NCBI RefSeq assembly: GCF_044704955.1
Contig: NC_091977.1
Location: forward strand, 384,462,001-384,526,000
Reading direction: 5' to 3'
Source: Pristiophorus japonicus
Taxonomy: Eukaryota
DNA: 64,000 nt
The notes below the pieces were generated by a model. The model was given only the letters and a program-made list of their open reading frames with translations, did not search any database and was not told the origin of the DNA. Below, one piece after another: positions 4,201 through 48,077 of the stretch (position 1 is the stretch's first letter; the number at the start of each line of letters is the position of its first letter). Position numbers and translations under genes: made by a program.

Positions 4201-4697
4201 TTTTTGTCTGGTTGCACTTCTGTGAAACACCTTGGCACACTTTTATATGTTTAAGGCTTATATAAATACAAATTGTTGTTCTTCAAAATTCTGGAGTGTC
4301 CACCTGCTTTAAGGTGCAGTTATGCTGTGTTGCTGCAAAGTTGTTTCCTCTTTGCAGTGACGCAAATGTCACAGAGTTGCATCCAGACCTGACTATCGTA
4401 GGGACCACTGCGAGATCCCCTGGAGGAGGATATCTTAAGTGAACTGAGTTTAACTCCAGTGCAGTGTCAGGTCTATTTGAAAAGATTCTTGCAGTGAACC
4501 TCATTGACACTTTATAAAGCTTGGCAGAGATTACTTAACTGTTTAGAGACCAAATGTTCTCAACATATTCAGGATTTACCAGCTGGGTAATAGAGCTCTG
4601 TCATGATTGTAAGCACACACCGACAGAGATGTCTTCTGGCCATAAGAGTTGAATTTTCAGCCAATCAGTATCAACAAGGAACTGCCAGCTGTGAATA

Positions 4698-13850: not shown

Positions 13851-13870
13851 CCTTCCCAGACCCATGAGAG

Positions 13871-15045: not shown

Positions 15046-15284
15046 AGGCAGCCACAGGAAGACACTGCTGTGTAGTAGTAGGATAGGTACGCGTAAGAGG
15101 GGTTATAAGGAAATGCACAAGGGTGAGAAATGATGTTGTATTAGTTTTTTGCATTATGATGTAATAAATCTTTATTTTGTGTCCCTCTATCTGGCCAGAT
15201 GTAGAATTTGATGGTGGGCATTAATGTATGAAGGGAATCATTGGGATGGCCAAGGAAAAGCGAAGTTCAAGGGTCATGTGGGCA

Positions 15285-17970: not shown

Positions 17971-18811
17971 AGCCAGTCCCTCGGAATCGAGAAAGACTTG
18001 CTTCCACTCCTGAAGTGAGTTCTTTGGTGGCTGTACAGTCCAATATGTGAGCCACAGACTCTGTCACAGGTGGGACAGATAGTCGTTGAGGGGAAGTGTG
18101 GGTGGGACTGGTTTGCCGCACGCTCTTTCCGCTGTCTGCGCTTGTTTTCTGCATACTCTCGGCATTGAGACTCGAGGTACTCAGCGCCCTCTCAGATGTA
18201 CTTCCTCCACTTAGGGCGGTCTTTGGCCAGGGACTCCCAGTTGTCAGTGGGGATGTTGCACTTTATCAGGGAGGCTTTGAGGGTGTCCTTGTAGCATTTC
18301 TGCTGCCCACCTTTGACTCGTTTGCCATGAAGGAGCTCCGAGTAGAGCACTTGCTTTACTCTGGCATGCGGACTATGTGGCCTGCCCAGCGGAGCTGATC
18401 AAGTGTGGTCAGTGCTTCAATGCTGGGGATGTTGGTCTGGTTGAGGATGCTAATGTTGGTGCGCCTGTCCTCCCAGGGCATTTGTAGGATCTTGCAGAGG
18501 CGATATTTCTCCAGCAACTTGATGATGTCTACTGTACATGGTCCATGTCTCTGAGCCATACAGGGGGCGGGTATTACTACTGCCCTGTAGACCATGAGCT
18601 TGGTGGCAGTTTTGAGGGCCTGGTCTTCAAACACTCTTTTCCTCAGGCAACCGAAGGCTGAACCACTTCCCATATCTCGGGAGCCTCCTATCAACAAGAG
18701 CAGGTATCGACGACGAGATCCAACACTGCCTCCAGTGCGCCAGTGCAGCCTTCGGTCGCCTGAGGAAAAGAATGTTTGAAGCCCAGGCCCTCAAAACTGC
18801 CACCAAGCTCA
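17940..18811 (-). mobile_element. RTE-clade LINE 3' part with 5' inversion
   Basis: (CAT)n tail and QLRWAGHIVRM peptide. 18661-18811 is inverted. TSD TGGCAGCATCA at 17929 and 18812. Confidence 0.9.
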
Positions 18812-19249
18812 TGGCAGCATCACTACTGACTGAAGGACATAGCTACCAGACTGAGTCTGCATCTGGGGAAGAGGAAACAAAGGAATAATTGTTGGAGGCC
18901 AATCATCACAGTGCCAAGGCAGGCATCTACTTTAACATTAAACTTTCCTCTGTCATAAGGTGAGAAGTGGGGCTGTTAACTCATGATTCTATAGTGTTTA
19001 GCTTCATTTGCAACTACTTATAAAATGGAGCAGCCCATGCCAGCTGACAAAAGGACTTGGATAATGTCGAGGCTGGCTGAAAAATGAAAAGTAATATTTT
19101 TGCCACATAAATGATAGGTAATGACCATCTCCAATAATAAAAGGCCCAACAATAAATCCCTGAGTCACTGAGTCCTGCACCATCAACATCTTGAGGGTCA
19201 TCATTGACCAGAAGCTTAACTGGACACCATCAACATGGCTACAAGAGAG

Positions 19250-19854: not shown

Positions 19855-20043
19855 TGTACCCCAGTGAGACTCAGTGTCTGGGCAACTGTACTCCAGTGAG
19901 AGTCAGTATCTGTGGAACTGTACCTCAGGGAGAGTCAGTGTCTGGAATTCTACCCCAGTGAGAGTCAGTGTCTGTGGAATTCTACCCCAGTGAGAGTCAG
20001 TGTCTTATGGAACTGTACCCCAGTGAGAAGCAGTGTCTGTGGA
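19855..20043. repeat. ~32-bp minisatellite x6
   Basis: Units approximating TGTACCCCAGTGAGAGTCAGTGTCTGTGGAAC, directly abutting. Confidence 0.9.
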
Positions 20044-21216
20044 TTTGGAACACTATTGTAGGAGCAAACATCAGCACAAGTATTGCAGTGATTGAAGGAG
20101 CAGGTCCATGACCATCTTCTCAGGGCAACTAGGGATGGGCAATAAAAGTGGCTTTAGCAACTTTGCCCACTGCTGAGGCCATCACAGACCCTGACAGCAA
20201 TGAAAGTATAGACTATTTTCCTGCTTAACAATGATGACTACAGTTCAAAAAGTAACCCATTGAATCAGAAGCACTTCGGAAAGCCTGACGAGGTTCTATG
20301 TAAATTAAAATTCAGCGGCCTAGAAACAGGCATTCACATAAAGGTGGCATAATGCCCACTTGAAACCCTCTTCCTGAAATTGGGCACATCGCCGGCTACG
20401 TTCAGGATAACCAGGTCTACATGCAGCACAACCAATGGCCCTGGAGTGCTCCTCACAGCTTCACTGTAGTCCTGAAGACTGTTGCCCATCCCAGTTTGGC
20501 CCCTTCCAGATTGTCTTGCCCCTTCCCGATCAGCCCCTACCTCCCTCCCACATGACAGCTCCATCCCTGACTCCCAATTGCTCATCTCTCTCACAATCAC
20601 CTCTGGCCCAACTTCATCATCGTGGAACTGGCGAGCTGTCTCTGGTTGCACAACTGGCGTCCACAATTCACCAGCAATATGCTGATGAGGCCCAAGGCCC
20701 AATTTAGGGTGAGCTTCAGGCCTCTGCCTTCTGCCGCACTTCCAGTATGCTGCATATTTGAGGCTTCAAAATGGGCCACGATGAATTTCCACACCTTTAT
20801 TTCTTAACTCAGAACATTGTCAACACATTTGATCACTATTGTCCATTATGCAATTTTCTTTTCTGGCATATTTCTAGGTGTTTTAAATGGAGTTTAATAA
20901 AAAAAATTACTTCATTCCTTTGAGTGAAGAGCATTTGTTTTTACTTATAGAAGAACACATGTGAAATGTGCTGCTATGCTGACTCCTTGTACTACATGAC
21001 GTAGTGCATTGTGTTCTTTATTGTGTACTGCTCCTAAGTGATAAACTTTTGGAAGGATTAGATCTGACGGCCCCCTGAGGGGTCTCTGGAAGACTTTCTT
21101 GTGCTCCTGTTGGTCACCTATTACTATGTGCTGCAGACCCAAATAATCATGCCTGTCCTCATCTGTGGAGGCTGTAGTCAACGCTCTTCAGGATCTGAAG
21201 TTCTACTGAATATCTG

Positions 21217-22638
21217 TTGATTCGACACCAGATGTCACACACTCAGATCACTGACATTTTGTCCCGCTATATTCTACTGACTGGTGCTGAGGAAAGGTTC
21301 CTGAAGTTCTTGCCAATAATCGGTTATACTGGGCAAGAAATAGCAGGAATAATACTGGCCTTTCTGGATGAGAAAGGGATCGACATACAAAATTGTCGCG
21401 GACAATCTTATGATAATGCTTCAACTATGAGTGCGAAATACATTGGTGTCCAAATTATCATCAAAGAGCAATGCCCATATGTGCCATTTATACCATGCAC
21501 AGTGCATTCACTCAACCTTATGGGGAAAAACAGTGTTGGATGCAGCCCAGTGATCATCAGATTTTTTGACATTGTACAAAAGTTGCACACTTTTACTCTT
21601 TGCATCGACGTATCGCTGGCAACTGCTTTATGAAAAACTAAAGCCTTTAGGGCTTTCTATCATCAAACAGCTTTCTGCTACTCGATGGTCAGCAAGGTAT
21701 GAAGCAGTGTCACCCTATGTGGAGTGTTGGAATCCCCGGCAACTGACGAGGAACAGAAAGTTGAATGCCGAAATGAAGCTCAGTTGATCCTTGACAAACT
21801 GGGTGAACTGCATTCAGCTATTCTCATTGTTATTTGGAACATAGTCTTGAAGCGCTTTCACCTGATCAATCTCTCGCTTCAAGAGACCGGCTTGAATCTG
21901 AATGTCATGGTGTCCTTACTCGAGTCCCTTGTCAATTTTGTCAAGACCCAGCAGACAGAGTTTGAGGACTTTGAAGACGTAGGGATTAAACTGTGTGGCC
22001 ACAATGAGTACAATTCAGCTCAGAGGCGTGTCCGGGTAAGCAATCGCCGCTATGACAACGGAGATGCTGAAAGCACTGTGCTGTCACCCAAGGAGAAATT
22101 CAAAACTGAAATGTTCCTTGTCATCATTGATCAATTAATCAGTACCTTGAAACACCGCCTTGAAGCATACAAGGAAACCAACTGTAAGTTTGGATTCCTG
22201 TCCAAGCTAGCCGCTCTCTCGATTCATGAGATCAAGCAAACCGCAACAAATCTTGCCCACTCCTATCCCAAAGATCTGGAACCTATGATTGAAAGTGAAT
22301 TAATCCAGTTTTCTATCTTGGTGGCATCCTCAACAGAGCTTCAAATCTCAATTTGTGTCAAACAAACTAAGTCAGCAGAGCAGAGAATGTGTCAATTCCG
22401 CCATACACACACCCCCACCCAAACCTCATCTAACATTGAAATAGCTCTTCGGATATATCTGTTAATGATGGTATCGAATTGCAGTGGTGAGCGGTCTTTC
22501 TCAAAACTAAAATGCCTCAAGGATGAGGTCAGGAACCGAATGGGACAAGATCGACTTAATAGTCTTTCAATCATGAGCATCGAGAGCGAAGTACTGAGAG
22601 GACTTGACTTCTCGAAAATCGTTGATGAGTTTAGCTGA
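21217..22638 (+). pseudogene. hAT-superfamily transposase remnant (ZMYM1/PRKRIR-like, C-terminal hAT dimerisation domain)
   Basis: CRGQSYDNASTM, PCTVHSLNL, LSATRWSAR, SNCSGERSFSKLK and MGQDRLNSLSIMSIE across three frameshifted ORFs. Confidence 0.9.
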
Positions 22639-23354: not shown

Positions 23355-25311
23355 TTGAGCCTGCAACACCATTCAATAAGATCATGGCTGATCATTCCCT
23401 CAGTACCCCTTTCCTGCTTTCTCTCCATACCCCTGATCCCCTTAGCTGTAAGGGCCATATCTAAGTCACTCTTGAATATATCCAATAAACTGGCATCAAC
23501 AACTCTCTGCGGTAGGGAATTCCACAGGTTAACAAGTCTCTGAGTGAAGAAGTTTCTCCTCATCTCAGTCCTAAATGGCCTTCCTCTTATCCTAAGACTG
23601 TGTCCCCTGGTTCTGGACTTCCCCAACATCGGGAACAATCTACCCGCATCTAACCTGTCCCGTCCCGTCAGAATCTTGTATGTTTCTCTGAGATCCCCTC
23701 TCATTCTTCTAAACCCCACTTCTGATAAAAAGTGGCGTTACATTAGCTACCCTCCAGTCCATAGGAACTGATCCCAAGTCGATAGACTGTTGGAAAATGA
23801 TCACCAATGCATCCACTATTTCTTGGGCCATTTTCTTAAGTTGTCTTGGATGCAGACTATCAGGCGCCGGGGATTTATCGGCCTTCAATCCCATCAATTT
23901 CCTGAACACAATTTCCCGCCTAATAAGGATATCCTTCAGTTCCGCCTTCTCACTAGACCCTCGGTCCCCTAGTAGAAACATAGAAACATAGAAAATAGGT
24001 GCAGGAGTAGGCCATTCGGCCCTTCTAGCCTGCACCACCATTCAATGAGTTCATGGCTGAACATTCAACTTCAGTACCCCATTCCTGCTTTCTCGCCATA
24101 CCCCTTGATCCCCCTAGTAGTAAGGACCTCATCTAACTCCTTTTTGAATATATTTAGTGAATTGGCCTCAACAACTTTCTGTGGTAGAGAATTCCACAGG
24201 TTCACCACTCTCTGGGTGAAGAAGTTCCTCCGCATCTCGGTCCTAAATGGCTTACCCCTTATCCTTAGACTGTGACCTCTGGTTCTGGACTTCCCAACAT
24301 TGGGAACATTCTTCCTGCATCTAACCTGTCTAACCCCGTCAGAATTTTAAATGTTTCTATGAGGTCCCCTCTCATTCTTCTGAACTCCAGTGAATACAAG
24401 CCCAGTTGATCCAGTCTTTCTTGATAGGTCAGTCCCGCCATCCCGGGAATCAGTCTGGTGAACCTTCGCTGCACTCCCTCAATAGCAAGAATGTCCTTCC
24501 TCAGGTTAGGAGACCAAAACTGTACACAATACTCCAGGTGTGGCCTCACCAATGCCCTGTACAACTGTAGCAACACCTCCCTGCCCCTGTACTCAAATCC
24601 CCTTGCTATGAAGGCCAACATGCCATTTGCTTTCTTAACCGCCTGCTGCACCTGCATGCCAACCTTCAATGACTGATGTACCATGACACCCAGGTCTCTT
24701 TGCACCTCCCCTTTTCCTAATCTGTCACCATTCAGATAATAGTCTGTCTCTCTGTTTTTACCACCAAAGTGGATAACCTCACATTCACTTCCGGAAGGTT
24801 ATTTGTGTCTTCCTTCGTGAAGACAGAACCAAAGTATTTGTTCAATAGGTCTGCCATTTCTTTGTTACCCATTATAAATTCACCTGAATCCGACTGCAAG
24901 GGACCTACGTTTGTCTTCACTAATCTTTTTCTCTTCACATATCTATAGAAGCTTTTGCAGTCAGTTTTTATGTTCCTGGCAAGCTTCTTCTCGTACTCTT
25001 TTTCCCCCCTCTTAATTAAACCCTTTGTCCTCCTTTGCTGAATTCTAAATTTCTCCCAGTCCTCAGGTTTGTTGCTTTTTCTGGCCAATTTATATGCCTC
25101 TTCCTTGGATTTAAAAGTACCTTTAATTTCTCTTGTTAGCCACGGTTGAGCCACCTTCCCCGTTTTATTTTTACTCCAGACAGGGATGTACAATTGTTGA
25201 AGTTCATCCATGTAATCTTTAAATGTCTGCCATTGCCTATCCACCGTCAACCCTTTGGTTCTGTCTTCACGAAGGAAGGCACAAATAACCTTCCGGAAGT
25301 ACTAGGGGACC
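23355..25311 (-). mobile_element. Rearranged CR1 with a second CR1 (23973-24785) nested in it and an inverted duplication at its right end
   Basis: 3' end 23355-23712 is joined to mid-ORF2 23715-23972. TAGAAACA tail at 23973. Upstream ORF2 resumes at 24786-25251. 25252-25311 is inverted. Confidence 0.88.
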
Positions 25312-25449: not shown

Positions 25450-28400
25450 ATTAAAATCTAGTTGCCGGGGGTGATGATGCACTCCAGTCCCACCGCCGGC
25501 CACCTCTTGCGGAAGGCCGCGAGTGTACCGGTGGACACCACGTGCTCCATTTCCAGGGACACCCTGGCTCTGATGTAATTGCGGAAGAGAGGCAGGCAGT
25601 CAGGCTGAACGGCCCCCTCGACCGCCCGCTGCCTGGACTGGCTGATGGCGCCCTTGGCCATGCCCAGGAGCAGTCCTACGAGTAGGCTCTCCGACCTGCC
25701 CACTCCCCTTTGCACAGGGTACCCAAAGATCAGGAGTGTGGGACTGAAGTGCAACCAGAATTTGAGGAGCAGCCCCTTCAAATAATGGAAGAGGGGCTGC
25801 AATCTCGCACACTCCATAAAAACATGGAACACGGACTCTTCCAGACCACAGAAATTGCAGGATGGCTGGGAGTAGATGAACCGGCTTAAAAGCTTATGCA
25901 CGGGATTGCTCCATGCACCACCCTCCAGGCCAAGTCCCCAAGAGATCGGGGGAGGACTCCCATGTAGAGTGCACTCCAGTGGGGATTCCCGCCTCCTCCG
26001 GACCGCAAGATGGTGCGCCATGGCGTGTCCGGACAGCAGACGAGGATGGCAAGGTGGAGATTGTGCAAGAGCAGCCCGTACAGGAAACCCCTCCGCGCAG
26101 AACTGAAAGGCACGGAGGGGATTTCCACAAGGCGGCTCAAGTTGTGATGCGCCAGCTCCCGAGGGAGGTTTCGGGGCTTGGCACCAATGAGGAATTCCAT
26201 CCGGACGGGGGTCAGTTCAGACGGGATCTCCCCGCGTGCTTGAGCTTCCTCGACACACCTAACGGAGTCAGGGCCCAGTGCTGTTTTTAGCGCTGGGCCC
26301 TGGCATTGGCCGCGCGCCGGACATCGGCCCAGTTTAGACGCCATGGCAGCACAGCTGGCGCCATCCAACCCGTTCCTCCACCATTGAGCAGGTCCCTGAC
26401 CCTGGTCACCTCGCCAGCCACAGCCTTCTCGCCTGCATGCCACCTAAAACCGCGGTCGTGGAGGTACGGATTCCTGAGCAGCGGCTCCTGTAGGACAGCC
26501 GCCACTCCAGAAGGGGGAGAGCTGCACTTAGTGACAACTCTGTTCCAGACCCTGATGAGTTCCTGGTAAAAAACAGGCAGACCCCGCATGGTGGTCCTGA
26601 CACCCGCCAGGCTCACAAACAGGAGCTGAGTGACATAGAAAATAGGTGCAGGAGTAGGCCATTCGACCCTTCTAGCCTGCACCGAATATTGAGGTCATAA
26701 TTGAGGTTGTATTGCTGGTGGAAGAAATACATGCCACCTAGGATGGGGCTCAACATACAGGTATCTCTGCAAGGCCTGAAGACGGAAAGTCGCTAGCTGG
26801 GTGCTGACGCACAACTGACCGCCTTCCCTAAGCGGGAGACTCAAAACCGCAGCAGAGACCCAGTGCTTTCTGTTGTTCTAGAAGATGTCCACCAGCTTCT
26901 TCTGTATCTTGGCGACAAACGCAGAGGGAGGGGTCAAAGTGACCAGCCGGTACCACAGCATAGCGGCCACCAGCTGGTTTATAACTAGCGCTCGACCACT
27001 GTAGGACAGCACTCGGAGCAGTCCTGTCCAGCGCCCAAGGCGAGCGGCGACTTTGGCCTCCAGCTCCTGCCAGTTCGCCGGCCAGGCTTCCTCGTCGGGG
27101 CTAAGATAGACTCCCAGATAGAGGAGATGGGTCGTGCTCCAGGCAAAAGGCCTGAGCTCCTCCGGCAGGGAGTCCACCTGCCACTGACCCACCAGGAGTC
27201 TGGAACATTTCTCCCAGTTGATCCTGGCGGAGGATGCAGCTGAGTAAATCTCCTGGCACTCGTGCAGCCTCTGTAGGTCAATGGGATCCTCGACCATGAG
27301 GAGCACGTCATCGGCATTAGCAGAGAGGACAACCCCCAAGCCCGGCCCTTGCAGAACCAGTTCCGTCAAAGGCGCAGGAAAGGCTCCACGCATAAGGCAT
27401 ATAACTGGCCAGATATGGGGCATCCCTGGCGCACCCCTCTCCCAAAGCTAAGGGGCACCGTCAAAGACCCGTTAACCTTAATTAGACACTCCATGGCGGC
27501 ATACAAAAGTCGGATCCGTGCAACTAAGTGCATCCCGAACCCGAAAGCGCGCAGAATTCCAAACAGATACTCGTGATCCACCCTGTTGAATGCCTTCTCC
27601 TGGTCTAGGGAAAGGAAGGTGACCGACAGACCAGCCTCCTGGGAATGGTGGACCAGGTCCCAGACCAGATGGATGTTGTTGTGGAATGTCCGGCCCGGGA
27701 CCATGTAGCACTGGTCGGGGTGGATCATGTGGTCCAGCACGGCGCCAAGACGAGCAGACATCACCCTGGCAAAAATGTTGTAATCCGTGCTGAGTTCTTA
27801 AGTAGACGGCGATCGCCCTTCTTAGGCAGCAGGACGATGACTGCCCTGCACCAAGAGAGGGGCATCTCCCCGGTTACCAGACTTTCCCCCAGGACCCGTA
27901 CGTAGTCGCCCCCCAGGACGTCCCAGAATGCCCTGTGGAACTCCACGGTCAGCCCGTCCAGCACTGGGGACTTTCCCCTCGAAAGCTGGTCGAGGGCATC
28001 GGTCAGCTCCTCCAGGCTTAGCGGAGTGTCCAGATTTTCAGCGCACTCCGGGCCGACCTTCGGCAGGTCCTCCCACAAAACTCTACGCACTTCGTCGCTG
28101 GATGGATCCGGAGAGAACAGAGCCCCGTAATAGTCTCGGGCCCTGTTATTGGTGTCCTCCGGGTCCGAGATCAGGGATCCGTCGTCGGCCAACAACGTCA
28201 AGAGCTGCTTACGGACCGCCGGTCTTTTTTCCAACGAGTAGAAGAAGGGGGAGCCACGGTCCAGGTCCTGAAGGAACCAGATTTGTGACCTCACGAACGC
28301 GCCTCCGGACCCGACAAACTTCAGGTCCTTCAGCGTGGCCTTCTTCGCTTCGTACATCGTCCGCAGGGCCGGGTCCTCGATGACTTGACTGAGACGGGAT

Positions 28401-29259: not shown

Positions 29260-31377
29260 CTAACTTAAACTACAGTGGCGGGGGGGGACGGAGTCGTTTG
29301 ATGACCTCCACTCCCTCAGCAGCCCAGCAAGGAATGTTCTGAGCCGGCGCAGCTCAAGGGCTTCTAGTTTTGATAAGGTCCTGTCCACGTCCATGGTTTT
29401 GACGGCGGCGCAGACAGAACTGATGAGCAGCGCCGGCTTGGACCATTTGTCCAGAGCCAGATGGGCTCTATTGCGGCAACCCTGGCATTGCGCCAAAAAG
29501 TCCCGGAGTTCCTTGGCAGGAATGAGGGGGGACCCAGTGGCGGGTACGAGGAGATCCACCACCTCACTGGTGATGGACTCCACATCTTCTCCCGCGTCCT
29601 CCACCGAGTCCCCGTCCTCCTCCGGGAAGTTCATCACCAGCAGCCAGTCTGTCAACCACACGGGCTTTGGCAAACAGCCCGGCCGCACCATCTGGCCCTA
29701 TCTCTGTCACGATCCCACCCCCAGGATCATCGGCAGAGGAGTCCTCCCTGGACACCCCCTGGGATGCTGGGTCGGGAAGCAGCAGCGGAGGGAGGTCCCC
29801 CTCTGCCCCAGGCACCGGGGAGCATGGAGAGACTGGGCAGAAAAACAGCTCCAGGTCCTCCAAGTCCCCCGGCTCCATCATCAGGGAGGACGATTGGGGT
29901 TCCACACCCTCCCCGCTACCATCCACCGGCCTAGCGGGTGGGTGTTCATGAAGTACATCTTGTTCTTTTCGCACCAGGTCGAGCAGATCCCGAGGGATGT
30001 CAATAATTGGCTGGGAGGGTTTGGACTCGGCCTCATCGGCCCCGCCCGCCTCAGTCCCCGGGAGGCTCTACCCGGCAGCGGCATTTTCTTTTCGCGGCCC
30101 CGCGCCCCCCGCAAGTGGCAGTTCTTGTTCCCCATCCCCGGGAGGCACAGGCTGGGCAGCCTTGGATGTCTCGCCTTCCCGAGGGACAGGCTCCACCCAC
30201 CTTCGGTGCGCATTGGGAACGCTGGTGGGGGATGCGGGACTCGCGCTGGGCACCAACTCCTCCAAGAAGGGACCTTGGTCATCCTCCGCTTCCTTGGAGT
30301 GGTGCCTCCTTTTTTTACTGGAGGGACGCGGAGGCAGGGAGCTCTCCATGTCGGGTGGGGCTCCCGCCTCCACTCCCTCCTTCCGATTATCTTGCCCGCG
30401 CCCGAAGCTGACCACAAACTCCCTGCAGAGGCGGGTGTGGTCAGGGGATCGGGCCCAGGCTCAGAATGCAACGTGCTCACCGGCGATAGTGGGGAGGGTG
30501 AGCGCGTTGATTGGGCTGTGTGGCCCACTGAGGGGACTGTCCGGAGGGGTGTTTATTTGTTTTCTTCCGTGCCCTTGTTCCGCACGGATGCTCTCCCTCC
30601 CCCCGCGCCGGAGCCCGCGAAGACAAAGGCCTCCGACGATGCCCGCGCACCTACGGCTCCCGGCACACAGGCGGTACAAGGGAGAGGGGTGGCAGTGGCA
30701 CCAGCCTTGGCCGCTTTGGCTGTTTTAGCGACCTTGGAGGCGGGGCAGTTCTTTCGGACGTGTCCCACCTCCTCACAGGCATGGCACCGCACGCCGTCCG
30801 ATGTCCAGAAGACGTGGTAGGCAGTCCTCTCGTGGACCACATTGAATGTACCCTCTGTTACCTCCTCCTGGGCCAGCTGAATGAAAAGCTGGCGCCGGAA
30901 GGAGAACACATGACGGAGGTTGGCCTCCTTGAAGCCGAGCGGTATCGGCGTTATCTCTGACCTCACCTCCCCCAGTTGATGTAGGTGGGGGAGGAGGAGC
31001 TCCCCGGGAACAAAGGGCGGGACGTTCGAGATGACGACGCTCTGCGCGGTGGCCTCGAGAGGATCCACCGGCAGGAATGTCCCGCCCACCGTGAGCCCCT
31101 TACTGAGGGCCAGGGACACTGCCCGCTCCGACCCCAGGAAGAACACAGCCTTCCCGTACATGTTGGAGGCGGCGACAATGGCCGAGGGGCCGACTACCCC
31201 AGCCATTGCCCTCACGCACTCCTCGATGGTCGTGTTGGGGTGAGTGTAGCTCTTGACCCTGTTCTTTTTAGTAATGAGTCTGAAAGGTGGCAGGGCAGCA
31301 GGAGCCGCCGTGGCCTTTGCTGCCACGCACGCATAAGTTTGTGCTGGCCCCGCCATCGGCAAAGATGGACTCACCAT
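29260..31377 (-). pseudogene. Tx1 ORF1 (gag-like, ZCCHC3-like N-terminus with zinc knuckle), frameshifted
   Basis: ORF 30553-31377 contains IVAASNMYGKAVFFL, VVISNVPPF and CHACEEVGHVRKNC. Low-complexity continuation in other frames down to 29260. Confidence 0.85.
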
Positions 31378-31566
31378 ATCGGGGTCCCTTTAAGGGCTCA
31401 CTCACCCCAAAGTGACAGGCCTTAAAGGTCTTGATTGGCCTCGTTGATGAGCAGAGGGAGTTCTTAATGAGGCATACCTCTCCCCAACTTTTGACAATTG
31501 TGGAGGGGTCCTTTTCCCTTTGGTCAGTCGTTGTTTGTTTTATAAAATATATTTTAAAAGAGGCTC

Positions 31567-31605
31567 TCAGAGAGAGAGAGAGAGGAGAGACAGAGAGAGA
31601 GAGGG
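31567..31605. repeat. (GA)n microsatellite in Tx1 5' UTR
   Basis: Visible imperfect GA run. Confidence 0.85.
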
Positions 31606-32197
31606 AGGGGGGACGGTGGAAAAGAGAGAGGCTGTGGTATCAGGCAATTCTCACAGCATTGGGTGGGTGCTTGCAGGGGGTACACTCCCCGGATCACAAA
31701 CAAAGTCTTTATATTCTTCTCGCAGGGGGACAAGATATCTTCATCTGGGATGGCTGGACCCGCCCAGGCACAGTCCTCCAAATGATGTTAAATAATTAAT
31801 GGGAAAGAGATTACACCCAGCTAGCTCCAGCCACCTGGGCCAGGCAATGGGGGAGGAGTGCTTCCAGTGGTGTGTGGGGCCCAGTTGTTCGCACGAACCC
31901 CACACACTTGCACGCACACCCCCCCCCAATGTTCTTAATAAATCTCCTTTTCTCCCAACACCGATTAAGCTAAGCAAAGTCTTTTTTGAGGAGTGCACTA
32001 AAATAAAACCACTTGTTGATTTTGACAATGGCTCTCCCTCCTTCTACACAGCCGGTGAGTAAGTTGAATGGCAGCTGTTCCTTCCCCCTCTCTCAAACTC
32101 TACAGGAGTATTGGCAGCTCTCCCTCCTCTCCCCTCTCCAGGCCGTTTTTCTTCCTCCTCCTCTCACAGGTTCCTGGGTTCACTCCCACTCTGCACC

Positions 32198-35100
32198 AGT
32201 TCAACTATTTTAGTGGTGCATTTTAAACAATTGCCCCCTGAAAGGGGGGTCACACTCCAAAACAAAGTTTTTCCCCGTGCCTCTTTTTTGGGCGGGGGTT
32301 TAGGGCACTAAAAACAGAAATTATACAAGTGCCCCTGGCTAAAAGGGGGACATTATCAGTTCAACTATTTTAGTTGTGCATTTTAAACAAATGCTCCCTG
32401 CAAGGGGGGTCACACTCCAAAATATATTCTTTCCCAGTGCCACTTTTTTTTTTTTTTTTGAGGGCACCAACACACACATTATACAAGTGCCCCCTGGCTA
32501 AAAGGCGGGGGGGCACTAAAACCGGCAAATTAAACAAATTAAACTTTAGACAATAAAATCAAATTAAAATTTGGTTGCCGGGGGTGATGATGCACTCCAG
32601 TCCCTCCAGCGCCCACCTCTCGCGGAAGGCTGCGAGCGTATTGGTGGACACCCCGTGCTCCATCTCCAGGGACACCCTGACCCGGATGTAACCGCAGAAG
32701 AGAGACAGGCAGTCTGGCTGAACGGCCCCCTCGACCGCCCGCTGCCTGGACCGGCTGATGGCTCCCTTGGCCATGCCCAGGAGCAGTCCTACGAGGAGGA
32801 CTTCCGACCTGCTCACTCCCCTCCGCACAGGGTGCCCAAAGATCAGGAGTGTGGGACTGAAGTGCAACCAGAATTTGAGGAGCAGCCCCTTCAAATAATG
32901 GAATAGGGGCTGCAACCTCGCACATCCTACAATTCTTTTTGTTGTGAACGAAATAAAAATTAAATCAAGTGCCCCCTGATTAAAAGGGGGGTCACACTCC
33001 AAAAAACTTTTCAATGCCCCCTTATTTTTTTTGAGGGCATAACAACACAAATTAAACAAGTGCCGCCTAGCTAAAAGTGGTGGGGGTGGGGGGGTCACTA
33101 AAACTGACAAACATAGACAAATTAAACTTTGGACATGGTTCAAATTAATATTTAGTTGCCGGGGGTGATGATGCACTCCAGTCCCTCCGGAATCCACATC
33201 TCGCAGTGTACCAATGGACACCGCCTGTCAACAGCTCTATAACTATTTTAAATTGTGATCAGTAATCAAGTGCCCCCTGATTAAAAGGAGGGGGGACACA
33301 TCAAACATTTTCAAACAACTGCCCCCTTGTTTTATTTGAGGGCACAAAAACACAAATTATACAAGTGCCCCCTGGCTAAAAGGGGAGGGGGCACTAAAAC
33401 CGCAATTAAACAAATTAAACTTTAAACAATAATAATCAAATTAAAATTTGGTTGCCGGAGGTGATGATGCACTCCAATCCCTCCGGCCCTCACCTCTTGC
33501 GGAAGGCCGCGAGCATACCGGTCAACACCGTGTGCTCCATCTCCAGGGACTCCCTGGCTCGAGCAGGTTCCTGACCCTGGTCACCTCGCCAGCCACAGCC
33601 CTCTCGTCCGCCTGCCACCTAAAACCGCAGTCATGAAGGTACGGATTACTGAGCAACGGCTCCTGCAGGACAGCCGCCACTCCAGACAGAGGAGAGTTAC
33701 ACTTGGTGGCAACTCTGTTCCAGACACTGATGAGATCCTGGTAAAAGACAGGCAGACCCCGCATGGTGGTCCTGACACCCCCCCAGGCTCACAAACAGCA
33801 GCTGCGTGTTGTAATTGAGGCTGTACTGCTGGCGGAAGAAATGCATCTCTAGCGCACGCCATCTAGGATGGGGCTCGACATAGAGGTATCTCTGCAGGGT
33901 CTGAAGATGGAAAGTTGCATGCTGGATGCTGACGCACACCAACGCCAGACCGTCCTCCCTAAGTGGGAGAATCAAAACCGCAGCAGAGACCCAGTGTTTC
34001 CTGTTGTTCCAGAAGAAGTCCACCAGTTTCTTCGGTATCTTGGCGACAAACACAGGGGGAGGGGTCAAAGTGACTCAACAGCTCTACAATTATTTTGTGT
34101 TGTATCAGTAATCAAGTGCCCCCTGATTAAAGGGAGGGGGGGACATACTCCAAAAAACCTTTCAAGTGCCCCCTTATCTTTTTTTATTTTTATTTTTTAA
34201 GGGTACTAAAAACGCAAATTATACAAGTGCCCCCCTGGCTAAAAGGGATGGGGGGGGCACTAAAACCGACAAACATAGACAAATTAAACTTTGGACATGT
34301 TTCAAATAAAAAATTGGTTGTCGGGGGTGATGATGTACTCCAGTCTCTCCGGCGTCCACATCTCGCAGAAGGCCGCGAGCGTACCGGTGGACACCGTGTG
34401 TCAACAGCTCTACAACTATTTTTGTAGAAAAACAGAAAATCAAGTGCCCCCTGATTAAAGGGGTGGACACACCAAACATTTTCAAATAAATGACCCCATT
34501 TTTTTTTTGGTGTTTTTTTTAGGGTACTAAAAACACAAATTATACAAGTGCCCCCTGGCTAAGAGGAGGGGTACTAAAACCATCAAATTAAACAAATTAA
34601 CATTTAGGCATAAAATCAAATTAAAATTTGGTTGTCAGGGGTGATGATTCACACCAGTCCTTCCGATGCCCACCTCTCGCGGAAGGCCGCGAGTGTGTCG
34701 GTGGACACCGCATGCTCCATCTCCAGGGACACGCTGGCTCGGATGTAACCGCGGAAGAGAGGCAGGCAGTCGGGCTGAATGACCCCCTCGACCGCCCGCT
34801 GCCTGGACCGGCTGATGGTCCCCTTGCCTATGCCGAGGAGCAGTCCTACCTACCAGGAGGCCTTCCGACCTGCCCGCTCCCCTCCGCACAAGGTGCCCAA
34901 AGATCAGGAGTGTGGGACTGAAGTACAACCAGAATTTGAGGAGCAGCCCTTCAAATATTGGAATAGGAGCTGCAACCTCGCACATTCCATAAAAATGTGG
35001 AACATGGAGTACTCCAGACCGCAGAAATTGCAGGCGGCCTGGGAGCCCGTGAACCGACCTAAAAACTTATTGCACGGGACTGCTCTGTGCACCACCCTCT

Positions 35101-37848
35101 AGGCCAAGTCCCCATTAAATAGTGGGAGGACTCCCGCGTAGAGAGCACTCCATTGCGGACTTCCGCCTCCTCCGGACGGCAAGATGGTGCGCCATGGCTT
35201 GTCCGGACGGCAAACAAGGATGGCAAGGTGCAGAGTGTGCCCGCACAGGAAACCCCTCCGCGCAGAACTGAAAGGCATGGAGGGGATTTCCCCAAGGAGG
35301 CTCAAGTTGTGAGGTGCCGGTTTGCAAGAGGGTTTCGGGGCTTGGCGCCGATGAGAAATTCTGTCCGGACAGGCATCAGTTCAGACGGGATCTCCCCACA
35401 TGCTTGAGCCTCTTCGACACACCTAACAGAGTCAGGGCCCAGCGTTGTTTTTAGCGACTCGATGGCATTGGCTGCTAGCCGAACGCGGCCCAGTTTAGTC
35501 ACAGTGCCAGCAAGTCTGGCGCCATGCAACCCGCTCCTCCGCCATCGAGCAGGTCCCTGATCCTTGTCACCTCACCAGCCACAGCCCTCTCATCCACCTA
35601 CAACCTAAAACCGCGGTCGTGGAGGTACGGATTCCTGAGCAGCAGCTCCTGCACTACAGCCGCCTCTCCAGATGGGGGAGAGCTGCGCTTGGTGGCGACT
35701 CTGTTCCAGACCCTGATGAGTTCCTGGTAAAAGACAGGCAGACCCCGTATGGTGGTCCTGACACCCCCCCAGGCTCACAAACAGGAGCTGCGTGTCGTAA
35801 TTGAGGCTGTACTGCTGGCGGAAGAAATACATCGCCAGCGCACGCCACCTAGGAGGGGGCTCGACATAGAGGTATCTCTGCAGGGTCTGAAGATGGAAAG
35901 TTGCATGCTGGGTGCTGACACACACCAACGCCTGACTGCCCCCCCTAAGCGGGAGACTCAAAACCGCAGCAAAGACCCAGTGCTTCCTGCTGTTCCAGAA
36001 GAAGTCCACCAGCTTCTTCGGTATCATGGCGACAAACGCAGGGGGAGGGGTCAAAGTGACTCAACAGCTCTACAATTATTTTGTGTTGTATCAGTAATCA
36101 AGTGCCCCCTGATTAAAGGGAGGGGGGGACATACTCCAAAAAACTTTTCAAGTACCCCGTATTTTTTTCTTGAGGGCACTAAAAACACAAATTATACAAC
36201 TGCCCCCTTAGCTAAAAGGAGAAGGGGGCACAAAAACCGACAAGCATAGACAAATTAAACTTTGGACATGGTTCAAATTAAAATTTGGTTGCCGGGGGTG
36301 ATGATGTACTCCAGTCCCTCTGGCGTCCACATCTCGCAGAAGGCCGCGAGTGTACCGGTGGACACCGCATGTCAACAGCTCTACAACCATTTTATAGAAA
36401 AACAGTTAAACAATTAAATCAAGTGCCCCTCTTATGGTGGGGGGACACTCCAAACACTTTCAATCAAGTGCCCCCTTGTTTTTTGTTTGTTTTTTTTTGC
36501 TGGGAAGGTTTTGAGGGCACAAAAAACACAAATTATAAGAGTGCCTCCTGGATAAAAGGGGAGGGGACACACCAAAGACTTTTCAAGTGCCCCCTTTTTT
36601 TTTCTAGGGCAGTAAAAACACAAATTATACAAGTGCCCCCTGGCTAAAAGGGCGGGGCGCACTAAAACTGGCAATTAAACAAATTAAACTTTACACAATA
36701 ATAATCAAATTAAAATGTGGTTGCCAGGGGTGATGATGTACTCCAGTCCCTCCGGTGTCCACAGCTCGCAGAAGGCCACGAGCGTACCGGTGGACACCGC
36801 CTGTCAACAGCTCCACAACTCTTTTGATTGGAAACAGAAATAAACATTAGTTCAAGTGCCCCCCGATCTGGGGGACACTCCAAACACTTATCTTTATATT
36901 GGTTTTTTTGTATTTTTTGTGTTTTTTTTTGTTGTTTTCTTGTGGATTTTTTTGGGCCCTAAAACTGTAAATTTATAAGTGCCCCCTATAACAGGGGAGG
37001 GGGACACTAAAACCGGCAGTTAAAACAAATTAAACTTTAAAACATACTTCAAATTAAAATTTGGTTGCCGGGGGTAACGATGCACTCCAGTCCCTCCGGC
37101 GCCCATCTCTCGCGGAAGGCCGCGAGCCTAACGGTGGACACCGCGTGTCAACAGCTCCACAACTCTTTTGGGGGGGGGAACAAAATAAACGTTAGATCAA
37201 GTGCCCCCCGATCTGGGGGACACTCCAGACACTTAACTGTCCCTTTTTTTAAAAAATGTTTTTTGTTTCTTTTTTTTGTTTTTTTCTGGGTTTTTTTGTG
37301 ATTTTTTTGGGGGGGGCATTAAAACCATATATTTTACAAGTGCCCCCTATAAAAGGGGAAGGGCACACTAAAAATCCGGCAATTAAAGCAAATTAAACTT
37401 TAAAACATATAAAATCAAATTAAAATTTGGTTGCCGGGGGTAACAATGCACTCCAGTCCCTCCAGCGCCCACCTCTCGTGGAAGGCCGCGAGCGTACCTG
37501 TGGACACCGGTGTCAAACAGCTCCACAACTCTTTTTGGGGGAGACACATTAGATCGAGTGCCCCCCGATCTGGGGGAAACTCCAGACACTTTTAACTGCC
37601 CTCTTTTATTTGTGGGGTTTTTTTGGTGATTTTTTGGGGCATTAAAATCATATAATTTACAAGTGCCCCCTATAAAAGTGGAGGGGGACACTAAAACCCG
37701 GCAATTAAAATAAATTAAACTTTAAAACATAAAATCAAATTAAAATTTGGTTGCCGGGGGTGATGATGCACTCCAGTCCCTCCGGCGCCCACCTCTCGCG
37801 GAAGGCCGCAAGCGTACCGGTGGACACCGCGTGTCAACAGCTCCACAA
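32198..37848 (-). repeat. Head-to-tail array of 11 5'-truncated Tx1 3' ends separated by a recurring junction motif
   Basis: Units begin on the plus strand at ~32198, 32356, 32925, 33228, 34075, 34401, 36061, 36372, 36804, 37148 and 37513. Most carry the ORF2 C-terminus plus the 3' UTR. TCAACAGCTCYAYAA occurs at 9 junctions. Confidence 0.92.
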
Positions 37849-38742
37849 ACCTGTGAGCATGCTCATAGGTGCATATTATAGGTGATGGCCATGCTAGGTG
37901 CAATAGTAGGTCTGCCAGAGAGCTTCTTATCAGTGTCAAGGAGCATGGAGAAATCCAGCTCCATTATTGCATGGGGCTTTGCGCAGAGCTTGGAGGCCAT
38001 GATTTCCAAGAGGGAAGTGATGGGCTGACTCCATGAGAGACCGTGTAGACCCAGCCATGATGCTGCGTGTGATGGGCGATGTCGCAGCTTCCATTGCAGC
38101 ACAGGCGGAAGTGACCCAATGTGTAAGTGCTGCGATGGAAGCTCAGACTGCTACCATCGATGCTGGGTTTATGAATGTAGAAAGGGGTATGCAGGGTCTC
38201 ACAGCACTCGAGAAATCTGTCCCCCAACAGATGGCTAGGAATGCTGAGGTGCCGCTCCGGGGGAGTAGCAGTGGATCTGTGGAGCAAGAGCCTGCTGTCC
38301 TCTCTCAGGATGATGGCATGCCTACTTCCACCAGTGCCACTCCGCGAGTGCCCTTGCTGCTGCCTGTCATCCAGCCTGTCCAGGCTGCTGCCGCCCACGT
38401 TGAGGTGGTGCAGTTTACAACTGGGCTTTCTAGGCCCAGAGCTGCTTGACGTCATCCTGCAAGGCCATCTGCAGTGTCCCTCAATGAAGGTCAGCACCCT
38501 TCCGCTAGCCATGCCGCAGCCAATGGGGGAATAATTCGTAGGAGCACTTGAGTAGAAAAAGGAACACGAAAGACAGACACGAAGGGAATGCACAAGGGTG
38601 ATTCATTGACGTTGTTGTTTTGATTTGGATTTAATACATTTATAAATTATGTTTGTTTTGTGGTTGGTCTCATTTCAGCTTTGTGCCCAGGAGGATACTG
38701 CAATGTTCCATGACAGAAGGATTGTAAGATGACAGGATGATT

Positions 38743-41524
38743 AGGGCTGGGAAATCAACATCCAGGGGTATTCAACATTCAGGAAGGATAGAATAAAAGG
38801 AAAAGGAGGTGGGGTAGCATTGCTGGTTAAAGAGGAGATTAATGCAATAGTTAGGAAAGACATTAGCTTGGATGATGTGGAATCTATATGGGTAGAGCTG
38901 CAGAACACCAAAGGGCAAAAAACGTTAGTGGGAGTTGTGTACAGACCTCCAAACAGTAGTAGTGATGTTGGGGAGGGCATCAAACAGGAAATTAGGAGTG
39001 CATGCAATAAAGGTGCAGCAGTTATAATGGGTGACTATAATATGCACATAGATTGGGCTAGCCAAACTGGAAGCAATACGGTAGAGGAGGATTTCCTGGA
39101 GTGCATAAGGGATGGTTTTCTAGACCAATATGTCGAGGAACCAACTAGGGGGGAGGCCATCTTAGACTGGGTGTTGTGTAATGAGAGAGGATTAATTACC
39201 AATCTCATTGTGCGAGGCCCCTTGGGGAAGAGTGACCATAATATGGTGGAATTTTGCATTAGGATGGAGAATGAAACAGTTAATTCAGAAACCATGGTCC
39301 AGAACTTAAAGAAGGGTAACTTTGAAGGTATGAGGCGTGAATTGGCTAAGATAGATTGGCGAATGATACTTAAGGGGTTGACTGTGGATGGGCAATGGCA
39401 GACATTTAGAGACCGCATGGATGAATTACAACAATTGTACATTCCTGTCTGGCGTAAAAATAAAAAAGGGAAGGTGGCTCAACCGTGGTTATCTAGGGAA
39501 ATCAGGGATAGTATTAAAGCCAATGAAGTGGCATACAAATTGGCCAGAAATAGCAGCGAACCTGGGGACTGGGAGAAATTTAGAACTCAGCAGAGGAGGA
39601 CAAAGGGTTTGATTAGGGCAGGGAAAATGGAGTACGAGAAGAAGCTTGCAGGGAACATTAAGGCGGATTGCAAAAGTTTCTATAGGTATGTAAAGAGAAA
39701 AAGGTTAGTAAAGACAAACGTAGGTCCCCTGCAGTCAGAATCAGGGGAAGTCATAACGGGGAACAAAGAAATGGCAGACCAATTGAACAAGTACTTTGGT
39801 TCAGTATTCACTAGAGGACACAAACAACCTTCCGGATATAAAAGGGGTCAGAGGGTCTAGTAAGGAAGAGGAACTGAGGGAAATCCTTATTAGTTGGGAA
39901 ATTATGTTGGGGAAATTGATGGGATTGAAGGCCGATAAATCCCCAGTGCCTGATGGACTGCATTCCAGAGTACTTAAGGAGGTGGCCTTGGAAATAGCGG
40001 ATGCATTGACAGTCATTTTCCAACATTCCATTGACTCTGGATCAGTTACTATGGAGTGGAGGATAGCCAATGTAACCCCACTTTTTAAAAAAGGAGAGAG
40101 AGAGAAAGCAGGGAATTATAGACCGGTCAGCCTGACCTCAGTAGTGGGTAAAATGATGGAATCAATTATTAAGGATGTCATAGCAGCGCATTTGGAAAAT
40201 GGTGACACGATAGGTCCAAGTCAGCATGGATTTGTGAAAGGGAAATCATGCTTGACAAATCTTCTGGAATTTTTTGAGGATGTTTCCAGTAAAGTGGACA
40301 AAGGAGAACCAGTTGATGTGGTATATTTGGACTTTCAGAAGGCTTTCGACAAGGTCCCACACAGGAGATTAATGTGCAAAGTTAGAGCACATGGGATTGG
40401 GGTAGTGTGCTGATGTGGATTGAGAACTGGTTGTCAGACAGGAAGCAAAGAGTAGGAGTAAATGGGTACTTTTCAGAATGGCAGGCAGTGACTAGTGGGG
40501 TACCGCAGGGTTCTGTGCTGGGGCCCCAGCTGTTTACATTGTACATTAATGATTTAGATGAGGGGATTAAATGTAGTATCTCCAAATTTGCGGATGACAC
40601 TAAGTTGGGTGGCAGTGTGAGCTGCTAGGAGGATGCTATGAGGTTGCAGAGTGACTTGGATAGGTTAGGTGAGTGGGCAAATGCGTGGCAGATGAAGTAT
40701 AATGTGGATAAATGTGAGGTTATCCACTTTGGTGGTAAAAAGAGAGAGACAGACTATTATCTGAATGGTGACAGATTAGGAAAAGGGGAGGTGCAACGAG
40801 ACCTGGGTGTCATGGTACATCAGTCACTGAAGGTTGGCATGCAGGTACAGCAGGCGGTTAAGAAAGCAAATGGCATGTTGGCCTTCATAGCGAGGGGATT
40901 TGAGTACAGGGGCAGGGAGGTGTTGCTACAGTTGTACAGGGCCTTGGTGAGGCCACACCTGGAGTATTGTGTACAGTTTTGGTCTCCTAACTTGAGGAAG
41001 GACATTCTTGCTATTGAGGGAGTGCAGCGAAGGTTCACCAGACTGATTCCCGGGATGGTGGGACTGACCTATCAAGAAAGATTGGATCAACTGGGCTTGT
41101 ATTCACTGGAGTTCAGAAGAGTGAGAGGGGACCTCATAGAAACATTTAAAATTCTGACGGGTTTGGACAGGTTGGATGCAGGAAGAATGTTCCCAATGTT
41201 GGGGAAGTCCAGAACCAGGGGTCACAGTCTAAGGATAAGGGGTAAGCCATTTAGGACCGAGATGAGGAGAAACTTCTTCACCCAGAGAGTGGTGGACCGG
41301 TGGAATTCTCTACCACAGAAAATAGTTGAGGCCAATTCACTAAATATATTCAAAAGGGAGTTAGATGAAGTCCTTACTACTCGGGGGATCAAGGGGTATG
41401 GCAAGAAAGCAGGAATGGGGTACTGAAGTTTCATGTTCAGCCATGAACTCATTGAATGGCGGTGCAGGCTAGAAGGGCTGAATGGCCTGCTCCTACACCT
41501 ATTTTCTATGTTTCTATGTTTCTA
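38743..41524 (+). mobile_element. CR1 LINE, 2.8 kb, truncated in the endonuclease domain; ORF2 disrupted by frameshifts and a stop
   Basis: GVVYRPP, GDYN, SDHN and RT motifs, with a TTTCTATG tail. Near identical to 1-2111. Confidence 0.97.
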
Positions 41525-41559
41525 AGTGATGACCAACAGGGGTTTTTGGTTTTTCATTC

Positions 41560-46069: not shown

Positions 46070-48077
46070 GGAGCCAAGTTTCGGCCTGGGTTGCTCCTGT
46101 TTTTTTGGAGCAACTGGTTTAGAATGGAGTATCTTAGAAATTTGAATTCTCGGCATTTAGTTTGCTCCAGTTAGAACAGTTTCACTTTGGAACAGAATTT
46201 ATTTTTCAAAAGGGGGCGTGTCCGGCCACTTACGCCTGTTTTCAAAGTTTAGGCAGTGAAAACTTACTCCAAACTAACTTAGAATGGAGCAAGTGAAGAT
46301 TTTTGTACGTTCGAAAAAACCTTGTCTACACTTTAGAAAATTAGGCGTAGGTTACAAATCAGGCGTAGGGAATGAGGTGGGGGGGGGTTTAAAGGGAAGT
46401 TTACAAATATTAAACACTTCAGTTTTACAAATAAAGAGCCATCATCAATAATAAATGATAAATACATCAATAAATCAACCAATAAATCAATCAAAAAAAA
46501 TTAATAAAAAATGTAAAAAAATGTTAAAAATCAATAAATAAAACATTTTCTACTTACCGACTGCAGCACCGGGAGTCCTCCAACAGTGTGCTGGGACGGA
46601 TCCCCAGTGTGTCTCTGTCAGTGTCGCTATCTCTCTGTCTGTCTGTGTGTGTGTGTGTGTGTCTCTCACTCTCTGTCTGTCAGTGTCTGTGTTTCTGACA
46701 GCGAGGGGAGGGGGAGAAGGGGAGGGGGAGGGGGAGAAGGGGGGTGGGGGGGAGGGGTAGGGAGATGGGGGGAGGGGTAGGGCGGTGAGGGGGGAGGGGT
46801 AGGGTGGGGTGGAGGAGAAGGGGGTGGGGAGGTGGGGGGGAAGGTGGAGGGGGGAGGGGGAGGTGGAGGGGGTGTGGGGGGATGGGGGTGGTGGGGAGGA
46901 GGAGGAGGAGGAGGAGGAGGAGGGGGTGGGGGGGAGGAGAAGGGGGTGGGGGGGAGGAGGATGGGGGTGGCAGGGGGAGGAGGAGGAGGGGGTGCGGGGA
47001 GGAGAAGGCGGGTGGGGGGAGGAGGAGGGGTGTGGGGGGGGAGGAGGAGGGGGAGGTGGAGGGAGGGTAGGTGGTAGAGGAGGGGGAGGAGAAGGGGGGT
47101 GAGAGAGGTGGGTGGGAGAGAGGACGGCGGAGAGAGGGGGAGAAGAGAGAGAGGATGGAGGGAGGGAGGGATGGAGGGAGGGAGAGGGGGAGAAGGGAGA
47201 CAGGAGGGAGGGAAGGAAGGGAGGGAATGAAGGAAGGGAGAGAAGGAGGCTAAATGGCCGGGCTCAAGACCTCGGGCTGGATTTATAGGTAGGTGGCGTC
47301 GGGTCTCGGGGGGGGGGGGGGTCGCGGAGGTCTGGGGGTGGGGGGGGGGAAAGAGTCGCAGAGGTCCGGGGGGGAGACGCAGAGGTCGGGGGGGAGGGAA
47401 GAGTCGTGGAGGTCCTGGGGGGGGGGGGAGTCGCGGAGGTCCGGGGGGGGGGGGGGAAGAGTCTCGGAGGTCCGGGGGGGGAGTCGCGGAGCTCTGGGGG
47501 GTTGCAGAGTCGCGGGGGGTGGGGAGAGTCACGGAGGTCCGGGGGGGAGGGGAGAGAGAGTCGCGGAGGTCCGGGGGGGGGAGTCGCGGAGGTCCGGGGG
47601 TGGGGGGGAGAGTCGCGGATGTCCGGGGGGGGGAGTCGCAGAGGTCGAGGGTTGGGGGGGAGAGTCGCGGAGTTCCGGGGGGGAGTCGCGGAGGTCGGGT
47701 CGCCGGAGGGGGGCGGGGGGAGCAGAGGTCGGGTCGGGTCTGGTCGGGTGGGAGGAGCCTTATTCATGCAGCCCCAGTGATGCCATTCGGCCAGAGCTAG
47801 GGGCTGCGTACTTCGGGCCCCTCCCACAGTTTTGGGCGCCTGGAGCTACTGCACATGCGCGCCCACTGTAGCGCGCATGTGCAGAGGTCCCAGCACTGTT
47901 TTCAGCGCAGGGACCTGGCTCCGCCCCCTACAGCTCGTGCTGCACCTCGCCCAGCTCCAGAGGACCTGCAGGGAGCCGGAGAATAGGTAAGTTTTTTTTA
48001 GGCGTACTTTCTGGCGCGAAAAACAGGCGTCCAGGTCCGGGCTGCACCGTTTTAGGCGCGGCCTGAAACTTGGGCCC
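46070..48077. mobile_element. Non-autonomous Harbinger-type TIR element with G-rich core
   Basis: Imperfect TIRs GGAGCCAAGTTTCGGCC / GGCCTGAAACTTGGGCCC. No credible coding content. Confidence 0.75.
46703..47745 (+). repeat. G-rich polypurine tract and ~20-bp G-rich minisatellite
   Basis: 46703-47250 is almost pure G/A. 47300-47730 has tandem GGGGG(n)AGAGTCGCGGAGGTCC units. Confidence 0.9.

Follow-up and report, generated by a model that had tools for sequence, protein, structure and literature searches.

Seven short Tx1-clade LINE units in a Pristiophorus japonicus array share one 5′ break at a target-like sequence in ORF2

We have studied a tandem array of fragments of a Tx1-clade long interspersed nuclear element (LINE) in the genome of Pristiophorus japonicus (assembly GCF_044704955.1, contig NC_091977.1, positions 384,462,001 to 384,526,000). 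This stretch of 64,000 nucleotides is referred to as the window, and coordinates are positions within it. Between 25300 and 37833 the minus strand carries 12 head-to-tail pieces of one LINE, numbered U1 to U12 in sense order from the right-hand flank. Seven of these are short units that begin at exactly the same base within the second open reading frame (ORF2), and at that base ORF2 resembles the site at which the family inserts. The explanation that we favor, and regard as evenly poised between right and wrong, is that 5′ ends were joined under the guidance of homology in at least two lineages, the products then being multiplied by local duplication and exchange.

The short units are U1 (37513 to 37833), U2 (37148 to 37512), U3 (36804 to 37147), U4 (36372 to 36803), U5 (36061 to 36371), U7 (34075 to 34400) and U9 (32925 to 33227), with lengths including the spacer of 321, 365, 344, 432, 311, 326 and 303 bp respectively. 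Each comprises a stub of ORF2 followed by a 3′ untranslated region (UTR), and starts 99 nt before the end of ORF2, i.e., 32 codons plus the stop. Six of the ends (33227, 34400, 36371, 36803, 37147 and 37833) match GGACACCGCGTG with at most one mismatch. The seventh (37512) lacks one nucleotide next to the break and aligns with the other six. When two mismatches are allowed, GGACACCGCGTG is matched 10 times in the window against 1.86 expected, a number reached in none of 100 shuffles; of the remaining four matches, three represent this site within longer copies. Four longer copies in the array retain the site of the shared break intact. An initial annotation of this DNA had proposed that seven units of ~300-430 bp with different UTRs shared a 5′ end about 30 codons before the ORF2 stop. 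The common end is borne out at every coordinate it gave, the measured range of lengths is 303-432 bp, and the UTRs do differ, with distances in the proximal UTR of 0.19-0.34 between groups of units. That account is extended here by the target and its duplication, the resemblance of ORF2 to the target at the break, the second break described below and the full extent of the array at 12 units.

The second break is an exact 5′ end (36060 and 34074) common to the long units U6 (34401 to 36060) and U8 (33228 to 34074), with sequence from residue 819 of Xenopus Tx1L onward. U8 has lost ~815 bp at 33560/33561 over a 3-nt overlap. The 12 units thus have five distinct 5′ ends: the shared break seven times, the second break twice, and those of U10, U11 and the near-full-length U12. 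The assignment to the Tx1 clade made initially holds. In a tblastn comparison the Xenopus Tx1 ORF2 aligns along U12 in a colinear manner over residues 1-1292, with 34-60% identity, and for a 189-amino acid segment of the reverse transcriptase the best named homolog among 56 is Tx1L (54% identity over 94%). Pfam gives a match to RVT_1 with E = 1.2e-16, matches to endonuclease and zf-RVT domains that fall below the cut-offs, and a weak match of ORF1 to zf-CCHC (E = 0.0024, 18.3 bits against a cut-off of 20.8).

A spacer of 15 nt, TCAACAGCTC(C/T)ACAA, adjoins all seven short ends, two longer units and the outer flank. Read in the sense orientation it is TT(G/A)T(A/G)GAGCTGTTGA, preceding the seven short and both long ends; it is present at nine junctions with the outer flank counted, the copy before U1 being that flank. 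This outer copy of the target-site duplication lies at 37834 to 37848 (minus strand; sense TTGTGGAGCTGTTGA), and its last A is a feature of this locus. The far outer flank of the array has been lost, and the target duplication cannot be closed on that side.

The nature of the target was deduced from Logan contigs of four runs placed on 37380 to 38750; these represent one sample of one study, and two of the runs look duplicated. The summed contig depth, which is a hint and not a copy number, is 102,000-167,000 in the bin 37840-37885 as against 2,000-4,300 in the next bin. At 37875, 260-352 contigs leave the window, reading CATTACA where the window has TATTATA (37874-37880), and then continue into long mixed flanks (median 255). 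The drop in depth and the mixed flanks indicate that 37835 to 37880 (minus strand) is the end of a multicopy repeat with a TG start in the LINE sense; the target is these terminal 46 bp of an LTR-like repeat, cut at 37835. From its TG start and the one end that is visible, the repeat would be a long terminal repeat (LTR). The target contains a 20-bp near-perfect palindrome (37850-37869), 15 bp from the cut, which is a possible recognition feature. A further 127-138 contigs join 37835 from other left-hand sequence; their mixed consensus (agreement 0.45-0.48) ends CACAGTG, which suggests that the empty target continues with CAC past the cut.

Other Tx1 5′ ends are also joined to 37835-37837, at least five among the joints listed, at depths of 5.5-58; exact contigs of the single locus have depths of 7.5-22. 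These breaks are found at 37607, 37778, 37788-37789 and 37798, and ~36 nt upstream of the shared break. They amount to at least five distinct 5′ breaks, from independent insertions that all used one site of the multicopy target. In addition, 114-132 contigs read through the shared break as long ORF2. Since varied Tx1 breaks are joined to the same 37835-37837 position, the family uses one insertion site while the extent of truncation varies, and its target duplication is the spacer. The Tx1 family is thus site-targeted, stacking at its own target as R1 arrays do. Contig depth suggests that it is very abundant. The depth of the Tx1 3′ region is more than 10-fold that of the target, and many copies may lie outside the target or in stacks; one criterion for a target-specific family is that >20% of copies are flanked by the target (PMC4494074; here and below, the literature is cited from parts of each source). 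The far half of the target is not found in the window at up to three mismatches, and exact-pattern scans for target or stub gave nothing in metagenome or viral contigs. One bacterial match to an exact pattern in genome contigs was taken as chance.

The shared break coincides with a look-alike of this target inside ORF2. ORF2 has TGGAGATGGAG upstream of the break, where the end of the target strand is TGGAGCTGTTG; from the letters of the window alone the two agree in register at eight of 11 positions, a level before the cut that is reached by four of 1,434 positions in U6. With CAC following both, the match across the cut becomes 11/14, which is the top site in U10 (where the intact ORF2 sequence occupies 32655-32668, sense TGGAGATGGAGCAC) and in the 3′ part of U8. 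The rate of an 11/14 match in shuffled sequence is 5e-5 per position. The peptide encoded at the look-alike is LEMEH in this element, LEKEH in a relative and unrelated in Tx1L, and because it differs between relatives we take the resemblance of ORF2 to the target to be incidental to coding. The coincidence of the break and the look-alike is statistically solid.

How many events do the seven ends represent? We compared the histories of stub and UTR in trees that all omit U11, which lacks a stub; the distal UTR tree omits U12 as well. In the stub tree, U4, U5, U7 and U9 form one group (type A; support 88/96, not starred). In the tree of the proximal UTR, U1-U3 (type B; 100/99) and U5, U7 and U9 (98/95) come out as groups, and U4 falls with the four long units, at a distance of 0.06-0.10 from three of them. 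The A state is present in U4 at all four diagnostic stub sites and at none of 17 in the UTR (Fisher p = 1.7e-4); this split shows it to be a mosaic, with a type-A stub, a long-type proximal UTR and one additional UTR module. The four A-diagnostic stub changes are all non-synonymous, indicating that type A was copied after losing coding constraint. Type B has none of the four derived A stub sites. It is defined by nine diagnostic columns shared in the UTR (six events), with no counterpart in the stub; private changes are even between the stub (39/1077, 3.6%) and the UTR (33/865, 3.8%); the UTR-only split of B differs from that of the private changes with Fisher p = 0.025 (0.007 per site). Changes in the UTR but none in the stub mean that B diverged while its stub was conserved, as would be the case for a coding master. 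Judged by these patterns, U1-U3 seem to represent a distinct coding subfamily in which the same break was acquired. Contigs with the B-type tip have depths of 134-740 compared with 7.5-22 for exact single-locus contigs, a weak hint that this tip exists elsewhere.

Some of the ends are clearly copies of one another. A block of ~870 bp at 33561 to 34435 has a partner at 35547-36409, with 785 matches in 859 ungapped columns (91.4%). It comprises the 5′ part of a long unit, a spacer, a whole short unit, another spacer and the 30-nt tip of the next unit, spanning three unit boundaries and holding two shared ends as well as the second break, across which the copies match at 78 of 80 positions. The continuation of the match across the boundaries shows that U5 and U7, and U6 and U8, are duplicates. 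Matches of U5/U6 with U7/U8 at stub positions 3-4 are states of CpG decay and were not counted as evidence. The seven ends are thus not seven events, and can probably be traced to two lineages (A and B) or more. The evidence for recurrence of the break is moderate.

The initial annotation had offered three interpretations, and it is partly supported in that no single one fits all seven units. Joining of a new UTR to an old, neighboring stub fits U4, a product that DNA crossover would equally give; it does not fit U5 and U7, whose downstream neighbors start at a different break. Tandem duplication accounts for the 870-bp block and not for the incongruent histories of stub and UTR in U4. Simple duplication had been expected to yield congruent trees and UTRs private to the locus; we find that U4 changes group between stub and UTR. 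Dispersal as a short interspersed nuclear element (SINE) is left unsupported, with no RNA polymerase III (Pol III) head and no strong signal in public contigs.

These observations may be brought together in a mechanism. A site-targeted Tx1 LINE would nick a multicopy LTR-like repeat at a fixed position, 46 bp in, and duplicate 14-15 nt of it; LINEs with an apurinic endonuclease usually leave duplications of 10-20 bp (PMC6895275). Repeated insertion at the duplication would build a head-to-tail stack, for which the spacers and common site are visible in the array and the order of insertion is presumed. New insertions into the 5′ duplication enlarge R1 arrays, and microhomology is seen at truncated R1 and R2 junctions (PMC2718515), as is standard at truncated L1 5′ ends (PMC10760644). 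The degenerate target copy present in ORF2, 32 codons before the stop, would then act as a strong pairing site 330 nt into the complementary DNA (cDNA). The cut top strand of the target would pair with the cDNA at this look-alike and prime the second strand, trimming the insert to ~330 bp. Such priming has been proposed for R1 and R2 (PMC2718515), and in R2-based insertion with designed homology the annealing of cDNA to the upstream target gives seamless 5′ joins (PMC11371274). The resulting short junction would restore CAC behind the cut as in the empty target, and so remain target-like; a later insertion could pair with the old stub and repeat the break, which is the old-stub interpretation mentioned above. 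The break would have arisen in, or been passed to, two lineages or more (A and B), and the duplicates U5/U7 and U6/U8 and the mosaic U4 indicate that local duplication and unequal exchange multiplied it.

Several observations weigh against homology-guided joining. U6 has another 11/14 site (35650) at which there is no break. The upstream match is 6/11 at the second break and 4-6/11 at the listed breaks at other loci, none exceeding 6/11. All the local junctions have an additional A that is absent at the cut from the family target and from ORF2, most joints at other loci lacking it; this places the local overhang one base out of register with the ORF2 match, and when a probe includes this A at its end, the break does not stand out from background. 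The letters of the target after the cut come from a loose-end consensus with an agreement of only 0.45-0.48, and the four Logan runs, as one sample of one study, may be the source of the window itself. Recurrence of the break is judged within this array, and a tree test does not reject a single origin of all seven short junctions (p-AU 0.156). No age gradient is evident along the array, private changes numbering 3-14 per unit with no clear trend. CpG dinucleotides are retained at 27/32 in U1-U3 compared with 55/85 in the other eight units, yet given the trendless private changes we do not claim that the youngest units lie at the flank. A reading of the additional A as a sign of common descent of the seven junctions was rejected because the independent second break has it too, so that the A travels with the spacer.

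The most serious rival, which we nevertheless think unlikely, is that truncation occurred once, at a base set by homology or by chance, and that all seven ends arose by duplication, unequal crossover and conversion at the DNA level. The 870-bp duplication demonstrates one such process in the array and U4 shows that stub and UTR can be exchanged; the second break, without a strong match to the target (6/11), is likewise shared by descent, the tree test just cited does not reject the short units as one clade, and arrays of double insertions expand by unequal exchange (PMC5932611). On this reading type B obtained its junction when a short unit and a long B-type insertion crossed over within the first 33 nt of the stub. 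That requires the exchange to fall in no more than 33 of ~250 homologous bases and to leave B without trace of the A stub sites, and the UTR-only divergence of B still needs a separate coding source. Two further explanations have less in their favor. It is improbable that a non-autonomous unit of ~330 bp, of type A, type B or both, is mobilized in trans or carried along by read-through transcripts of arrays, the target overhang pairing with the spacer copy in the cDNA to reproduce the exact 5′ end. Copying of A after loss of coding constraint fits this reading, and tandem copies of the target-specific SINEU-3 with a duplication between them are known (PMC4494074). However, there is no transfer RNA in the window and the four Rfam matches in 31500-38800 are all far below gathering scores, so that the units lack the Pol III head by which a SINE would be recognized. 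Moreover, the A copies lie in a block duplicated jointly with a long unit, no loose end occurs at 37848-37849 among the six listed for each run, and the B stub looks coding-constrained. Finally, the endonuclease might also cut the ORF2 look-alike, or repair after insertion might join the spacer to the ORF2 site, trimming long copies in either case. The break is indeed in register with the target cut site, with CAC after both. Insertion at the look-alike should leave an ORF2-derived duplication, yet none follows any unit; the four longer copies keep the site intact. We regard this as very improbable.

The array works like a tandem array of R1, while its sequence and anatomy would place it with the target-specific Tx1 families. 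Drosophila R1 arrays in 28S ribosomal DNA similarly have a 14-bp duplication between units, growth at the 5′ duplication and 5′ microhomology (PMC2718515). Identical R1 junctions have been read as amplification of one event (PMC2718515), and unequal exchange takes place later in such arrays (PMC5932611). R1 differs in clade and target, and has microhomologies of 1-5 nt at variable breaks, no in-register target copy in an ORF being described in the parts of the sources cited. Xenopus Tx1L, with its colinear ORF2, targets another transposable element, the DNA transposon Tx1D (PMC1950540); here the element inserts at an LTR-like end that has its own sequence, and twelve copies form the stack. Tx1 families preferring LTR retrotransposons, Mariner or Harbinger elements have been described (PMC4494074), and the crocodilian Tx1-Mar group, Tx1-8_Crp and Tx1-4_AMi (the last two with LTR-retrotransposon targets) resemble our family in targeting elements (PMC4494074). 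Tandem copies of SINEU-3 likewise sandwich a target duplication (PMC4494074), but the short units here consist of ORF2 stub and UTR without a head derived from small nuclear RNA. The parts of the main text of the crocodilian study consulted report no shared internal break (PMC4494074). In the incomplete literature searched, without supplements, we found no report of an ORF-internal target copy that fixes a truncation point; nor, in the same search, which covered few subscription papers and Repbase entries, of a recurrent truncation point or a shark Tx1 target. We conclude that the feature is real and that the structure is largely of a known kind, its Tx1 target being new relative to that literature.

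Individual units have features of their own, all on the minus strand. The stub of U1 departs from the array majority at one of 99 sites, and U1 has a fold z of −2.9. U2 has a 1-nt insertion as well as the 1-nt deletion at its junction, and U9 has an 11-nt deletion in its stub and a shortened downstream spacer. The 3′ UTRs (37513-37740 in U1, and in other units) consist of repeated GGGGCACTT and GTGCCCC modules in both orientations with A tracts between them, and the number of modules accounts for much of the difference in unit length. U10 (32357 to 32924) is 5′-truncated and reads past the break site, and U11 (32197 to 32349) is UTR only. These two end in a different, 8-nt spacer (32197-32205 and 32357-32365; sense TTGAACTG) and have a UTR type that is 87% identical between them; they may stem from a second regime of targeting, brought next to the main array by the deletion at 32924/32925. 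U12 (25300 to a start at ~32190) is decayed and has lost its 3′ tip. Its ORF1, with the zinc knuckle matched by Pfam, covers 30553-31389 and on, and its ORF2 (29238-25458) has frameshifts and a 61-bp insert (26633-26693) resembling the 3′ end of a local CR1-like LINE. Where the 3′ end of U12 stops, a 47-bp inverted pair (24785-24832 and 25256-25303) surrounds a CR1-like piece, and looks like a scar of inversion or twin priming.

The surroundings contain other repeats, whose CR1-, Harbinger- and hAT-like remnants indicate a vertebrate genome. The LTR-like element is hosted by a decayed ORF on the plus strand (37881 to 38560) that has no Pfam match, and paralogs at 13171, 54021 and 57808 with 66-72% identity. 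The paralog at 13171 faces an ORF with a DDE_Tnp_4 transposase domain (15290-15724), and the ORF at 37881-38560 would be the second gene of a Harbinger-type transposon; decayed relatives of this type occupy 12300-15724, 37881-38560, 53842-54165 and 57327-57808. A decayed hAT-type transposase lies at 21199-22638 (Dimer_Tnp_hAT, E = 7.7e-5). Two CR1-like copies (1-2104 and 39414-41527) are 95% identical, with further 96% fragments at 16662 and 23973, which marks a recently active family. There is also a G-rich low-complexity tract followed by a tandem repeat of 23-52 bp (46705-47699), and, at 18592-18814 and 19855-20043, a 73%-identical self-inverted stretch lying in a LINE fragment and a 32-bp tandem repeat in six copies.

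The joining of LINE 5′ ends is still an open question, and most treatments regard truncation as close to random, with microhomology of 1-5 nt. The combination of a fixed target and a natural look-alike in the ORF offers a clean test, since under annealing models the 5′ ends should spike at a single base. If there was only one truncation followed by duplication, this is an ordinary decayed array. The locus presents target-stacked LINE fragments turning into a tandem repeat of ~340 bp. A more general proposal, which we advance tentatively and with some doubt, is that where a LINE carries an in-register copy of its target in an ORF, the truncation product rebuilds the target, and the junction is re-targeted and passed on, giving a self-renewing short unit at many loci. 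If this is true, such a unit, with an old 5′ end and the UTR of a new subfamily, would constitute a promoterless route from LINE truncation to a repeat of fixed length.

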